31,169 nucleotides of DNA from Chloroflexota bacterium (GTDB lineage: Bacteria; Chloroflexota; Anaerolineae; Promineifilales; UBA4811). Shown here one piece after another: positions 1-5,706 of the stretch. The translations under genes were made by a program, and so were the position numbers. The DNA lies in assembly GCA_039714055.1 (NCBI GenBank), contig JBDLKB010000001.1:1-31169 (forward strand). Reading direction: 5' to 3'. How positions within the stretch are numbered: position 1 is the stretch's first letter; every line of letters starts with the position of its first letter. Below the pieces are notes generated by a model that saw only the letters and a list, made by a program, of their open reading frames with translations, had not been told where the DNA came from and did not search any database.

Positions 1-3000
1 CGAAATTCCGCCCGGGGATTGGATTCATTTTTCTCGACTGCGATCACTACCGATACATACACATTGGGGGCATAATCACTCGTAACCGGAATATGCAGCA
101 CATGGGTATTGCCTTCCATCTGGATCAATTCATAGCTCTTGATGTCCGCTCGTTCGATGGTAACCAATGCCGTCTGCGGCCCTTCAAATGGTGAAGGGAT
201 CAGAATCTCTGCAATTTCTCCCGGAACGTAACTATCCTTGTTGCTGATTAGGTTGACGCGGTTGTTATCCTCAATTCTCCAGCGCACCTTGCCTGGACCC
301 ATGGCCCAGAAGAAGGTGCTGCTGCGGATCGAACGCGAACTATCATCCACGCTTATGGCTTTCACCCGGTATGACCCAGCATCGGGAGCAGTCACCTGCA
401 CTGATGCTTCACCAAGATCATCGGTAACAGCCGACTTTCTCTCGATGAAAATCTCTTTCTGCTCCCAGGTCCAGCGGCCAAACCCTTGCTCATCACGCAC
501 GTATACTGACTCGCCTTCGATGCGATATAGTTCAACGGTGATTTCCCGTCCTTCAAGGCGACCATCATTAACCAACTGCTGTCCCGCCTTGGGCCACTCC
601 ACGGTGATGAGATCGATCTGGATTGGCTCGCCTGCCTGAGCGATTCGCTCAGAGGCCGCAACACCGACATAGTAATCACCTTTGTGAACCACCATCTGGC
701 TGCGACCCGATATTACGCTTCCATCAGGACCATAAACCATGACCTCGAAAGTCACAATTAGACTTCCGTCCTTTTCAACTGCTTCCGCAATCTCATCCAG
801 GGGGCTATCGAGAAGGAACATCCCTTGTGCATCGGTCCTTCCTTTGCCCCCAGCTATGGTGGTCTTCTCTGCCTGAGGCTCTCCCCACCACGATCTATAC
901 ATAATCCAGGGGTCATCGACTTCATCATAGCTGTAATTTCCTGGACCATCGAAAGAATAGGGCGAAGCTATCAGAGCCCATTCCAGTTCGGCGTCGCTCA
1001 CAGGGCTGCCAAAGAAGGTCTGGACCTGGGTAGCCCATTTGCTCGACTCACCTACGGTAATCTCATCCATGGATGGGGTCACTTTGACCTCAAACTCTGG
1101 TGGTCGGTATGCCGCAACCATAAAGGTACTCATCCCGTAGCTCTTGTAACGATCTTTGGATATTTCAATCATGTATCGCCCTAGAGGAGCGTCCTCCGCA
1201 AGGATCAACTCACCACTAAAGGCGTCATTGTCATTGAGCGTCACTAACTCATTGAATACATCATTGTATTCCGGGTCCTTTATCGTCACTTGTATCTGTC
1301 TCTGCTTGAGAGGATGATACCGGGCATCATCCTCCATCTTAACCAGCCCGCGGTAGTAAACAGTTTGATCTGGGCGGTATATAGGCCTGTCGGTATAAAT
1401 ATGCGCCCTCTCGACCATCGAGTAATCACCCGATGCAAAGCCAAAATCCCAGGGAGATAAACCTTGATCCCACCACTGAGAGGCCATGGAGAAGCGGTCA
1501 CCATCCTCATCAGACAATACCCATAGTTCACTCTTGTATCTTGGTACAGACTCTAGCAAAGCGACGCCGTCCTGATCAGTGAATAAAGTTTGCCGCTCCA
1601 CCCCGCTAGTAATAAGCTTTAACTCCAGTCCAGATACGGGCTGCCCTGACTGAAGGTCAGTTGCCCAGACCAAGAGCTGATCTTCCGTCCACTTGAGAGT
1701 GAGATTGGTCTTGGTCACCACCAACAAGTGATGATTATAACCCCAGTAGTAATTGATATTGTTGATCTCTGGAGAATAGGATGACAGGAAATACAAGCCT
1801 GGCTCCAAGGCTCCCCCATCTTCCAGCAAGTTTATGTTGACTATCTCAGTGGAATTGGGCACCCTCTCGACCGGCATACTCCACTCGCGTATCAGCGAAC
1901 CGACAGCCGGAGTGTATCTTTCCCATTCAGCCTCTACCTTGAAATACTCATCCGCAGTCAGCCGATATAGCTTGAAATCGATCCCAGATATATTACGATA
2001 CACCACCTGCAGCCTGGCAGGCTCGTAGGCATCGTATGTATTCACCAAACCGGAGGTGATCAATCTCAATTCAGGATCATAATCTCTGGTGGTGAATGTG
2101 ACATCCAGTGCATCAGGCGTCTCGTTTCCGTAAGCATCCTTGATACCGGGTTCGATTTTCACCTGATATTCTGTAGCGGGGAGAAAGTCAAAGTGTATCC
2201 AGAAACTATCGTCCCAGCGGCTGAACCAGGTGGATACTTCCGTGGCGGTAATGGCAGGAGTGATGCTGACATGCTCCATTACGGTAGATGGAACAATATC
2301 AGTGTTGAACTGAATTTTGAATCCACGATGCTGCGGATGTACTCTGGTCTCACCATCCCTGGGGTCAGTAGACAATATCCGCGGCAGAGGTACGGTATTG
2401 AAATGCCAGGAATACTCTTCTTCCATGCCTGCGCCGCCTGAAGATGAAGTCAATCCCGGCTCAATCTTCACAGTGTACATTTCATCGAATGCAAGATCGC
2501 CTTCCGGCTCAAATGCAACTTGGGCGCCATCTGTAGTTATCCTGCCCGGCACCTGGGTGCCGCTGCTATCAGTAACTCTGATCTTCTCCCGAGCAGAGTT
2601 GAGATCCACCGGCTGGTTAAAAGTAATCGAGATTGGATCGGCGATTGGAACCTGCTGTGCATTCACAGACGGTACATGCCAGGTAACAACGGGAGGACTA
2701 GTGGTAAAACTCCAGGAATGATCCTCGGGGAGAATCCCTCCGGTGAGATCCTTGAATCCTGCAGGTACACTAGCAGTTATGCGCGTGCCCCCAGGGAAAT
2801 TCCCGTCGGGGACGAACTCATAGATGGAGGTGTTGATCCACTCGCCCTTGCCTTTGATGGATGGATCCAGGGTCAACGGATGAGGAAAGTTTGCCTGGTC
2901 GTTCAAAGTTGCCAAAGGAACCACCGGTCGGTTAAAAATCACAATTATGTGACTGTCAGGTTCCACGCCGCTTGATCCTTCTGGGGGAGACACTTGAGCT

Positions 3001-3455
3001 ACCTGGAGAAAACCGACAGTGTTAAAGTCAAAGCTGTAATCGCGAAGAGCGGCACCAGTTGCAGCAGTGGCGTCGCTTGTCAACGATACCTGGTATTGCC
3101 CAGCACGAGGTAGGCTTTTATCAGGGATGAACTTTAATTGCTGATCGTCACTCCATTGAAATGAACCGGCTACCTTTGGCTCAATAGAGAAGGAGGATTC
3201 AACTGCTCTTCTATCCATTGGCTGATTGAACACCAGTACAATACTGGCATCGGTGGCTAGCTCTGCACCGGGCTCCGGGGACCTGTCAATGACCATAGCG
3301 GGGGCAATGACATCTTGGACCCACGAGGTGGGTGTTGGGATAGAAGTTTCAGTAGTTGGTTCGGGTGTGGCTGGAGTGGGAGTTTCCTTCGCCTTGCAAC
3401 CAACCAGCAACAATGTAACCAGAACAACGATCAAGAACAATCGATATTTCAACAT
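1..3455 (-). CDS. Bacterial alpha-2-macroglobulin family lipoprotein with four N-terminal Ig-like (Big_5-type) domains; 3'-truncated by the window edge (>1151 aa)
   Basis: Translated by hand; absent from the ORF track because it has no stop in the window. ATG at 3455 follows GGGAGG. The N-terminus MLKYRLFLIVVLVTLLLVGC is a signal peptide with lipobox, followed by a TPTPATPEPT linker and four ~100-aa repeats of the type 'V..SP..G....D..I.V.FNQP...F.T'. The MG2 motif IYTDRPIYRPDQTVYYRG (~1400-1347) and PNVYVSVV (~68-45) are in the same frame, and the track lists no ORF terminating in this frame. Confidence 0.93.
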   Translation of the reverse strand, partial: MLKYRLFLIVVLVTLLLVGCKAKETPTPATPEPTTETSIPTPTSWVQDVIAPAMVIDRSPEPGAELATDASIVLVFNQPMDRRAVESSFSIEPKVAGSFQWSDDQQLKFIPDKSLPRAGQYQVSLTSDATAATGAALRDYSFDFNTVGFLQVAQVSPPEGSSGVEPDSHIIVIFNRPVVPLATLNDQANFPHPLTLDPSIKGKGEWINTSIYEFVPDGNFPGGTRITASVPAGFKDLTGGILPEDHSWSFTTSPPVVTWHVPSVNAQQVPIADPISITFNQPVDLNSAREKIRVTDSSGTQVPGRITTDGAQVAFEPEGDLAFDEMYTVKIEPGLTSSSGGAGMEEEYSWHFNTVPLPRILSTDPRDGETRVHPQHRGFKIQFNTDIVPSTVMEHVSITPAITATEVSTWFSRWDDSFWIHFDFLPATEYQVKIEPGIKDAYGNETPDALDVTFTTRDYDPELRLITSGLVNTYDAYEPARLQVVYRNISGIDFKLYRLTADEYFKVEAEWERYTPAVGSLIREWSMPVERVPNSTEIVNINLLEDGGALEPGLYFLSSYSPEINNINYYWGYNHHLLVVTKTNLTLKWTEDQLLVWATDLQSGQPVSGLELKLITSGVERQTLFTDQDGVALLESVPRYKSELWVLSDEDGDRFSMASQWWDQGLSPWDFGFASGDYSMVERAHIYTDRPIYRPDQTVYYRGLVKMEDDARYHPLKQRQIQVTIKDPEYNDVFNELVTLNDNDAFSGELILAEDAPLGRYMIEISKDRYKSYGMSTFMVAAYRPPEFEVKVTPSMDEITVGESSKWATQVQTFFGSPVSDAELEWALIASPYSFDGPGNYSYDEVDDPWIMYRSWWGEPQAEKTTIAGGKGRTDAQGMFLLDSPLDEIAEAVEKDGSLIVTFEVMVYGPDGSVISGRSQMVVHKGDYYVGVAASERIAQAGEPIQIDLITVEWPKAGQQLVNDGRLEGREITVELYRIEGESVYVRDEQGFGRWTWEQKEIFIERKSAVTDDLGEASVQVTAPDAGSYRVKAISVDDSSRSIRSSTFFWAMGPGKVRWRIEDNNRVNLISNKDSYVPGEIAEILIPSPFEGPQTALVTIERADIKSYELIQMEGNTHVLHIPVTSDYAPNVYVSVVIAVEKNESNPRAEF

Positions 3456-3625
3456 AATACCGCCTCCCTGAATAAGCATGCGACAGCAATCATCTGAGCT
3501 GCAAGAGCCAGCTCGTATATTATGACGATGTATCAGGAAAATAGGTTCCGCAGTTCACAGTGAATCTATGTTATATGATACACTGACCATGCGGCGCTTG
3601 CGATTCCTCACCTATTTGTTAAACT

Positions 3626-3636
3626 TGTGCCATAAT
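3626..3636 (+). promoter_or_regulatory. Extended -10 promoter element (TGTG-C-CATAAT) just upstream of the candidate small RNA
   Basis: Sequence TGTGCCATAAT fits TRTGnTAnnnT except for the first hexamer base. The expected start site (~3642-3643) falls at the base of the predicted closing helix. Confidence 0.55.
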
Positions 3637-3639
3637 CAA

Positions 3640-3726
3640 GGGGCGCTATAAAGGGTCCCCCCACCCAAGTCCTTTGGTTTTCCTCGGGGGCGTCCGGGTT
3701 CCCCCCGCCTTGGCGCTCCCTTTTTT
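3640..3726 (+). ncRNA. Candidate structured small RNA (~85 nt; three-way junction, ends in U6); family not recognised
   Basis: GC-rich island in an AT-richer intergenic region. A 9-bp closing helix (3640-3648/3711-3719, two G-U pairs), hairpin P2 (3650-3656/3669-3675) and hairpin P3 (3685-3690/3702-3707) are followed by TTTTTT at 3721-3726. There is an upstream extended -10 and no + strand ORF start. Confidence 0.55.
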
Positions 3727-5189
3727 CATCTAGTTCGCGGCTCCCAATCCAGGTAATTATCCAAAGGATTGTCAGCAGATGTATTTAACGCTGTGATCAT
3801 ATCAATCACGGGCTGCCTCCAGTCGATCGCTGTTTGATAAGGGTTCGGATCCTGTCTCCAAAATAGAAAACCGCTTCCTCCTGAATACATAAAATCAGTC
3901 ACCAACACATGATAGGAAGCTCCGGGGTCAATCTTTTCGCCATTCGCCAAGTTGTATCCTTTGGTCGAGGTCATCCCTGCCATTACCGGATCACAGCATA
4001 GAATATTCTCCACCACTTGTGCTCCAACAATCTCGACATCCACCAGAACATTGGAAAACGGCAGAATACCAATTATGGATTTCAAGGTTATCTCACCTGG
4101 GAGTAAACCCTGACGAAAACCGCCACGATTGGTAAAGGCGATATCCGCGTTGGGATAAGCCTCAAGCCAGGCATCAGTGACCAGATTCTGAAGCGCAACC
4201 GAGTCCTTACCCAGAGGAGATTCGATGTAACCAATGACGTGATCCAACTCTTGGCTTGTTTCTGCATCCCAACGTTCGACGACCTGTTCTACTTGTTCGT
4301 CTCTCTGTCCCCCTTTGTTAGGAACAATCTCGATGCTAGAACTGGCAACGGTTTCTGTCTCTGTATCCCATTCAATGTCAACCCGAGCATAGTTATCCAT
4401 ATAGGCACCGCTTTCAACCAATGCCACATTGCTGACCGTTTCACTAATGGTTTCGTGACAATGTCCCCCACCAATCATGGCAATGCCCAGGTCCTCAGCT
4501 CTTGGTGCCAGCGCGCGCATTTCATCGCCGCACAAATGACCAATTACAATCAACATCTCTGCGCCATCTTGTTTGGCTTGCGGGACGATCATCTCAAGCG
4601 CATCAGCGTAAGGCACAAATAGGTAATCTTTGACATGCGCCGGCATGGTCGTTCTCGGTGTGCTCACAGATGATAGACCAATTATGCCCACCTGTACTCC
4701 GCTGACTTCTTGCACTATGTATGGAATGGCAATATCTGCAGTTTCTTCAGTAGCAAGATCCAGCATATTGGCAGCAAGAAAAGGGAATTCCGCTTGTGCG
4801 ATACGTTGGCGCAGCACATCGACACCAAAGTCGAATTCATGGTTACCCAAGGCTACCGCGTCGTATCCCATTTCATTCATTACATCTACCATCGCCTCGC
4901 CATCAGACCAGGTGGAGATGGCAGGCCCAGTCCAGGTATCACCACCACTTAGCACAAGATAGTTGCTATCTGGAACATACCCCTCGTTCTCCTTCCAAAG
5001 CGCAAACATACCTGCGGCACCGGCTTTCTCAGCAACCGGCTCAATCCAGCCGTGCTCGTCGTTGGTGTACAGGATCACTATATCCGTCGTCTCAGACACA
5101 ACTGGTTCAGTGGGAACCTCCTCCACCGGAGCGCTGGTGCAAGCCGCAGATAGAACAGCCAGCATCAATATCAGGATTGACTTTTTCAA
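3726..5189 (-). CDS. 5'-nucleotidase / metallophosphatase family lipoprotein (UshA-like, with C-terminal 5'-nucleotidase domain)
   Basis: Metallophosphoesterase motifs TNDEHG, GGDTWTG, GNHEFD and GGHCH; C-terminal domain with NRGGFR and LPFSN. Start moved to TTG 5189, which follows GGAGG and gives MKKSILILMLAVLSAAC (lipobox); the ORF track start at 5264 overlaps the upstream gene. Confidence 0.92.
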   Translation of the reverse strand: MKKSILILMLAVLSAACTSAPVEEVPTEPVVSETTDIVILYTNDEHGWIEPVAEKAGAAGMFALWKENEGYVPDSNYLVLSGGDTWTGPAISTWSDGEAMVDVMNEMGYDAVALGNHEFDFGVDVLRQRIAQAEFPFLAANMLDLATEETADIAIPYIVQEVSGVQVGIIGLSSVSTPRTTMPAHVKDYLFVPYADALEMIVPQAKQDGAEMLIVIGHLCGDEMRALAPRAEDLGIAMIGGGHCHETISETVSNVALVESGAYMDNYARVDIEWDTETETVASSSIEIVPNKGGQRDEQVEQVVERWDAETSQELDHVIGYIESPLGKDSVALQNLVTDAWLEAYPNADIAFTNRGGFRQGLLPGEITLKSIIGILPFSNVLVDVEIVGAQVVENILCCDPVMAGMTSTKGYNLANGEKIDPGASYHVLVTDFMYSGGSGFLFWRQDPNPYQTAIDWRQPVIDMITALNTSADNPLDNYLDWEPRTR

Positions 5190-5208
5190 ACTGCCCTCCA
5201 TATGATTT

Positions 5209-5706
5209 CTAATGATCATGCTCATTCGCATCCGACGAACGACTGACTGGAGTAATGGTAGCATCAGTTGCTGAAATCAGAACCCTAGTTTCGATTCGTA
5301 TCAAGGCATTTGAGCTGCCGCCACCAGCGTAAACCACATCTTGTTCTAGTACTTTGGGATCGATCCATGTGGTCAATTTAGAAATGTGAGCAAATGGCGG
5401 CACACCTCCAACGCTGTATCCGGTTATATTCTCTACATGCTCCGCGGTTGCTAGTTTCACTCTCTTTCGCCCCACCTGGAAACGCTCTGCGATCAGCCTC
5501 CTGTCAATGGTTGACTTTCCATTGGTAATCACCAGAAGGTTTTGTTGGTCAATTGTAAAGAGAACGGACTTGATTATTTGCTCAGTAGATACTCCCACAG
5601 CACTCGCGGCAGCAGCTACGGTTGGTGTAGGCGCTGCGGGATACACCAAGGTTGCTGATATCTGGTTCTCATCAAGCCAACGAGTCACATCTTGGTCGTT
5701 CAACAT
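5209..5706 (-). CDS. YbaK/EbsC family aminoacyl-tRNA deacylase (trans-editing domain)
   Basis: Motifs IIKSVLF and TGYSVGGVPPF plus the terminal 'VYAGGGS' are typical of the YbaK/ProX fold. Start set to ATG 5706 because the longer ORF overlaps the divergent gene. Confidence 0.88.
   Translation of the reverse strand: MLNDQDVTRWLDENQISATLVYPAAPTPTVAAAASAVGVSTEQIIKSVLFTIDQQNLLVITNGKSTIDRRLIAERFQVGRKRVKLATAEHVENITGYSVGGVPPFAHISKLTTWIDPKVLEQDVVYAGGGSSNALIRIETRVLISATDATITPVSRSSDANEHDH

Follow-up and report, generated by a model that had tools for sequence, protein, structure and literature searches.

A candidate small RNA gene with two C6-loop hairpins in one family of Chloroflexota

We describe a conserved RNA element, from a family of marine, uncultured Chloroflexota, on the plus strand of the analysed window (the whole stretch of 31,169 nucleotides), where it occupies about positions 3598-3726 from promoter to U-tract. 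A conserved promoter and terminator, a strand signal from G-U pairs and neighbouring genes that vary between genomes all support the original prediction of an independently transcribed plus-strand non-coding RNA gene, and we consider it highly probable that the element is at least a real RNA gene with its own transcription. The fuller reading, which we favour with some reserve and which draws on analogy with characterised RNAs, is that it encodes, on the plus strand, a stand-alone sRNA of about 93 nt that would act in trans, independently of a chaperone, through its C-rich loops. The element is a new and well-delimited sRNA family, whereas the mechanism proposed for it is not new.

Results

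Location and features of the element

The window is contig 1 of the source MAG (G000; 1.38 Mb, 69% complete, 50% GC), and the element sits there between two minus-strand genes that are 268 nt apart. The features are as follows.

3..3479, minus strand: divergent neighbour, alpha-2-macroglobulin-like protein (Pfam Big_5, MG2, bMG3, A2M_BRD), outside the RNA
3598..3603, plus strand: -35 box TTGCGA, with TTG invariant and C nearly so in 11/11 aligned homologues; upstream of it conservation stops at once
3617..3625, plus strand: extended -10 element TGTTAAACT (TG-T-TAAACT), separated from the -35 box by a 16-nt spacer; TG.TA.A.T is invariant in 11/11 homologues
3631..3636, plus strand: CATAAT, a -10 look-alike specific to the source genome; the aligned positions in 10 other homologues are not -10-like
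3633..3726, plus strand: predicted sRNA transcript of about 93 nt, its 5' end placed from the -10 element and its 3' end in the U-tract
3634..3679, plus strand: hairpin 1, with an 11-bp outer stem (3634-3644/3669-3679), an internal loop, an apical GGGU/ACCC helix (3653-3656/3663-3666) and the loop CCCCCC (3657-3662)
3680..3685, plus strand: linker UUCCUC, a single-stranded, anti-Shine-Dalgarno-like pyrimidine stretch, unpaired in all single-sequence folds
3686..3720, plus strand: hairpin 2, the terminator stem (3686-3692/3714-3720 and 3694-3698/3709-3713), with the loop UUCCCCCCGC (3699-3708)
3721..3726, plus strand: U-tract (U6) of the intrinsic terminator; a T-rich tract follows hairpin 2 in 12/12 homologues
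3726..5264, minus strand: convergent neighbour, a 512-aa 5'-nucleotidase_C / PGA_cap-like phosphoesterase (Pfam PF02872, E 6.5e-18), outside the RNA

Distribution and copy number

A DNA search of 40 relatives, comprising six genomes of the same family (Ardenticatenales-type) and 34 of the sister family, found the element in 6/6 of the former at 72-87% identity and nothing credible in the latter. In the alignment, conservation starts abruptly at the TTGC box of the -35 and stops at the T-tract. Recurrence at this identity in all six, within limits as sharp as these, is far beyond chance. Seven sequences were used to build a covariance model, with which each family genome yielded a single copy scoring 78-116 bits; the match in the source window (3627-3730) scored 105 bits, and one genome (G005) had two matches, both at contig ends. 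Loop-pattern scans of the genome collection and of metagenomes (one each) added homologues on five metagenome contigs. The carriers are Chloroflexota MAGs (Ardenticatenales, Anaerolineales, Chloroflexia), and among the public runs listed as containing this stretch there is no RNA run, the four that are listed being DNA runs from marine and sediment metagenomes.

With the same model no convincing homologue was found in about 440 other Chloroflexota genomes (144 of the sister family, 150 of the class and 150 of the phylum). Outside the family it returned only look-alikes of 28-34 bits (G031, G097, G323, G395), which were rejected because the C6 loops are missing or the match is a tandem repeat. 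Loop-pattern matches in Acidobacteriota, Actinomycetes and other genomes were rejected for having no covariance-model match. Two metagenome contigs (L048, L059) were set aside as well, TTCCCCCCG motifs being scattered on them without an sRNA-like fold.

The element is single-copy in its own MAG and in each relative. It is therefore not a REP-like or otherwise dispersed repeat, an outcome that the original prediction of an RNA gene required.

Structure and strand

The same two-hairpin structure was obtained from RNAalifold (7 sequences) and from separate MFE folding of each of the 12 homologues. On a MAFFT alignment of the 12 sequences this fold has 97.8% paired cells and 4 compensatory pairs, and G-U accounts for one-sided changes in many further pairs. 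Such values were reached by just 2-5 of 500 shuffles, and sliding the helix partners makes the pairing fall to 55% or less. In the outer stem of hairpin 1, where pairing over the 12 sequences reaches 98.5%, one pair is compensatory and seven show a change in only one partner, and an apical U-A or U-G pair of this hairpin is C-G in one family genome (G004). Hairpin 2 is 97.2% paired and has 3 pairs changed on both sides, for example a G-C pair here that all 11 others have as A-U. Because the 12 homologues are close to each other (83% mean column identity), their covariation is modest and in part inherited. The stability of the single sequence is ordinary relative to shuffles (z -1.06 for the plus strand and -0.44 for the minus strand), and support for the predicted structure is comparative. 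The G-U pairs also assign the element to the plus strand: with 40 G-U cells, the plus strand is 97.8% paired compared with 86.4% for the reverse complement.

Both apical loops have an invariant core, the C6 runs at 3657-3662 and 3701-3706 being unchanged in all 12 sequences, and this bears out the exposed C-rich loops noticed in the source sequence. The two invariant loop motifs are identical, UUCCCCCC, and closed by GGG/CCC. The linker is less conserved than the loops; it reads mostly UUCUCCUC across homologues and CCUUAUUU in one family genome (G004). The proposal that the UUUUCCUC linker is a conserved seed thus finds no support in the family. Since C6 is invariant whereas the linker is replaced in that genome, comparison of the homologues suggests that the loops, rather than the linker, are likely to be the seeds.

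The original prediction had drawn a different fold, a three-way junction with a kissing-loop pseudoknot. Its individual elements can be found in the window: the possible 9-bp helix (3640-3648/3711-3719) and the U6 (3721-3726) are there, as are the internal pseudo-repeat GGGUCCCCCCACC (3653-3665) / GGGUUCCCCCCGCC (3696-3709) and the ACCC/GGGU complementarity of the loops. The homologues do not support the kissing interaction, nor the junction as a whole, which with the kissing pairs has 77.7% paired cells over 12 sequences, a value equalled by 417 of 500 shuffles. The junction helix P3 has 56.9% paired cells and is broken in 11/12 sequences. Already in the source genome the single-sequence MFE structure consists of the two hairpins, with no junction, and at -25.3 kcal/mol the three-way junction is 12.7 kcal/mol worse than the MFE of -38.0 kcal/mol. 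The three-way junction is an accident of the source sequence, which has GG instead of AA in the 5' arm of hairpin 2, given that P3 is broken in nearly all homologues, that the fold is no better than shuffles and that its energy lies so far above the MFE.

A small-peptide gene was considered and rejected: loop indels of 1-2 nt shift the reading frame, and the homologues share no start codon, an ATG being present in some of them and absent at this locus in the source genome.

Promoter and terminator

Upstream of the structured part, the 11 homologues that have upstream sequence share a sigma-70-type -35 box and an extended -10 element at a fixed spacing of 16 nt. This promoter matches the hexamer consensus at 8 of 12 positions and was missed by the consensus scan. 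The 5' end of the RNA would lie near 3633, about 7 nt after TAAACT, with the first pair of hairpin 1 beginning at the next base. An own promoter and a U-tract terminator, as originally proposed, are both conserved, the coordinates of the promoter being different. The extended -10 that had been suggested, TGTG-C-CATAAT, is indeed present at 3626-3636; it is not conserved, and the conserved promoter is located 11 nt upstream. Elsewhere the CATAAT positions read CAGTAA, TAGAGA or CCAACC, and transcription starting from CATAAT would begin inside the 5' arm of hairpin 1. Judged from the alignment, CATAAT is probably not the promoter.

At the other end, the GC-rich hairpin 2 is directly followed by the U-tract in 12/12 sequences, as in an intrinsic terminator. 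It is absent from the list of scanned terminators because the loop of hairpin 2 exceeds the 8-nt limit of the tool.

Neighbouring genes

The downstream neighbour is convergent wherever it could be identified, and its identity varies between genomes: it is 5'-nucleotidase-like in the source MAG and two relatives (G000, G002, G004), an FAD-dependent reductase in three others (G001, G003, G005), YbaK on one metagenome contig and an M23 peptidase on another. Upstream we found alpha-2-macroglobulin (G000 and G004 only), a TMEM260-like transferase, ribosomal protein S1, a 222-aa unknown protein and a thiolase. The element is thus surrounded by at least four different downstream and five different upstream neighbours, while the promoter and the U-tract persist, which is the outcome foreseen for an autonomous RNA gene. 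No plus-strand gene lies upstream, as had been noted, and none follows the terminator in any genome examined. Promoter, RNA and terminator thus travel together, independently of neighbours that change from one genome to the next, and this argues against a conserved cis-regulatory, 3'-UTR or cis-antisense function. For the same reason we rejected a conserved antisense function against the convergent gene, that gene being a different one from genome to genome.

Reading of the sequence shows that the convergent 5'-nucleotidase-like gene ends in a stop codon (TGA, 3728-3726) which overlaps the U-tract (3721-3726). In this genome the transcripts of the sRNA and of that gene would therefore be complementary at their 3' ends; in relatives the gap between the convergent gene and the U-tract is 7-53 nt. 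The alpha-2-macroglobulin-like gene reads away from the element and starts at 3457 or 3479. The open reading frame list puts its start at ATG 3479, and the in-frame ATG at 3457 has GGGAGG upstream at a good distance, which makes 3457 the likely true start. With that start the protein would have a predicted signal peptide ending in a lipobox-like LVGC, and for this reason it is probably a lipoprotein.

Hfq and target searches

A Pfam search of 21 genomes from the family and the sister family, 17 of them of high quality, gave no Hfq above the cut-off. Two sub-threshold Sm-like matches were seen inside open reading frames of about 250 aa (G002 and G003). For the source MAG, base composition predicts about 380 runs of at least six G or C, about 2.5 times the 149 observed; A and T runs are less depleted (249 versus about 380).

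Searches for targets were based on home-made gene calls on the 69%-complete MAG and therefore give weak negative evidence: G6 runs before start codons were not enriched (18/149, similar to the C6 control), and when the three single-stranded segments were paired with 1148 crudely called start regions, the duplex energies equalled those of the reversed control (mean -12.18 versus -12.28 kcal/mol). The best-looking site, G7AA upstream of a membrane-protein gene (contig C217), was not conserved in three orthologues.

Discussion

Relation to known RNA families

Searching the window against Rfam 15 gave no family at its gathering score, in line with the initial impression that the RNA belongs to no Rfam family. 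Under permissive settings (E<=10) only chance-level matches to 6C, ftsZ-DE, ctRNA_pGA1 and BjrC80 appear in the window, and other unrelated families in the homologues. The match to 6C (RF01066) is the only full-length Rfam alignment in the window and scores 16.2 bits (E 5.2) against a cut-off of 47, and the six homologous loci have no 6C match at E<=10; for these two reasons membership in the 6C family is not supported. The window holds no match to sX13 or RsaE at E<=10, nor even at this level to the purine riboswitch (RF00167), and the junction helices are not conserved. No sequence homology to characterised C-loop sRNAs was found.

In its design the element can nevertheless be compared to 6C, which is represented by B11 in Mycobacterium tuberculosis and scr3558 in Streptomyces coelicolor and is likewise a stand-alone sRNA of about 80-95 nt. 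Both have two hairpins, each showing a conserved run of about six or more cytosines in its loop, with the second hairpin being the intrinsic terminator, and both occur in a host lineage without detectable Hfq. They differ in that the carriers here are Chloroflexota, with 50% GC in the source genome, and not Actinobacteria, and in that hairpin 1 is long (11 bp and an internal loop), while the first hairpin of 6C is short. RsaE of Staphylococcus and Bacillus targets G-rich mRNA sequences with C-rich hairpin-loop motifs. The same kind of targeting by C-rich loop motifs is reported for sX13 from Xanthomonas (PMC3771888). These two RNAs resemble the element in having multiple redundant C-rich seed loops, and differ from it in the loop motif, CCCC or UCCC compared with UUCCCCCC here, and also in hairpin number and phylum.

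Proposed mode of action

Transcription itself, like the whole mode of action, is something we infer. A promoter of the housekeeping-sigma type (TTGCGA, 16 nt, TGnTAAACT) would start transcription just before hairpin 1, and hairpin 2 with the U-tract would end it. The predicted RNA would consist of two hairpins joined by a short pyrimidine linker, each offering an invariant C6 loop. By analogy with 6C, sX13 and RsaE, these loops most probably pair with single-stranded G-rich stretches of several mRNAs, often at or near ribosome-binding sites, and the pairing would lower the translation or the stability of the targets. Pairing of C loops with G-rich ribosome-binding sites had already been proposed from the sequence, and we still consider it reasonable. 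Seeds so rich in G-C would presumably need no Hfq. In M. tuberculosis the C loops of 6C pair, chaperone-free, with G-rich and often ribosome-binding sites of mRNAs (PMC6486639), and the result that Hfq was not found in the relatives examined matches such pairing. Comparable depletion of G runs has been reported for mycobacteria in the same paper.

It is tempting to go further and speculate, though we hold this only tentatively, that the RNA is an independently evolved, Hfq-free global regulator, whose twin C6 loops would be anti-Shine-Dalgarno mimics acting on a regulon with G-rich leaders, and that it represents the first trans-acting sRNA gene defined from promoter to terminator for Anaerolineae-type Chloroflexota.

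Alternative interpretations

The element could instead be a stand-alone RNA that binds or sequesters a protein, for instance a binder of single-stranded C-rich RNA, or serves as a sponge, with no direct pairing to mRNA. Two identical invariant UUCCCCCC loops closed by GGG/CCC do resemble duplicated protein sites, and the lack of enrichment of complementary sites at translation starts would also fit. We regard this as rather unlikely, given that no candidate partner gene is linked to the element, the neighbours being variable, and that characterised RNAs of such design, e.g. 6C, all act by base pairing (PMC6486639). Somewhat less likely still is that the RNA is a highly diverged true homologue of actinobacterial 6C and not an independent invention. 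The shared architecture of two C6-loop hairpins, the second of which is the terminator, speaks for common descent, as does the fact that 6C alone gave a full-length Rfam alignment in the window (16.2 bits). That alignment is, however, far under the threshold of 47 bits (E 5.2), with nothing at E<=10 in six homologues, and the element belongs to a different phylum, in which it is limited to one family, with no convincing homologue in about 440 other Chloroflexota genomes.

It is very improbable that the element is merely the terminator or 3'-UTR structure of the convergent minus-strand gene, that is, a bidirectional terminator without an RNA product of its own. The convergent gene does end 0-53 nt from the U-tract in 5/5 genomes examined, with the stop codon overlap in this one, but the conserved promoter is on the plus strand, the G-U pairs favour that strand as well, and the minus strand has no U-tract after either hairpin. 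Moreover, the convergent gene is not the same in different genomes, and termination would not require hairpin 1 with its invariant loop. A three-way-junction aptamer resembling the purine riboswitch, or another cis-regulatory leader, is hardly credible: a junction with complementary loops can be drawn in the source genome only, where it lies 12.7 kcal/mol above the MFE; P3 is disrupted in 11/12 homologues, and the structure does no better than shuffles. The absence of a purine-riboswitch match at E<=10, and of a plus-strand gene after the terminator in any genome, tells against it too. An sRNA that would pair with mRNAs through its C6 loops is the interpretation that we prefer.

Significance

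The Chloroflexota are a large phylum, mostly uncultured, and to our knowledge almost nothing is known of how RNA regulates genes in them; in the literature searched we found no description of a C-rich-loop sRNA from this phylum. The present sRNA gene is cleanly delimited, with promoter, fold and terminator defined comparatively, and could be used for Rfam-style curation and for searches of metatranscriptomes. It also bears on whether C-loop RNAs of the 6C type are ancient or have been invented repeatedly where Hfq is missing.

Other C-rich and two-hairpin loci

A few loci seen in the course of the searches may be mentioned in their own right. Two metagenome contigs carry nearly identical C-rich stretches (L048:560-760 and L059:3050-3250) with several dispersed (A/T)TTCCCCCCG motifs within about 200 nt. 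In another Chloroflexota class (G323), a U-tailed two-hairpin element with similar stems and without C6 loops (L078:1501-1591) scores 34 bits with the covariance model; it may represent either a very distant relative or two terminators with no relation to the sRNA. In the sister family (G031), a tandem array on the minus strand (L018:1464-1815) contains 4.2 copies of an 85-nt unit and scores 28 bits. Two perfect hairpins, with the linker UUCCCCACCCAA, the loop UUUUCCCC and a U-run, are found in each unit, and the array could represent tandem C-rich sRNA genes or a structured repeat. The same locus holds a second repeat (L018:13-231), made of 3.1 copies of a G-rich unit of 73 nt.
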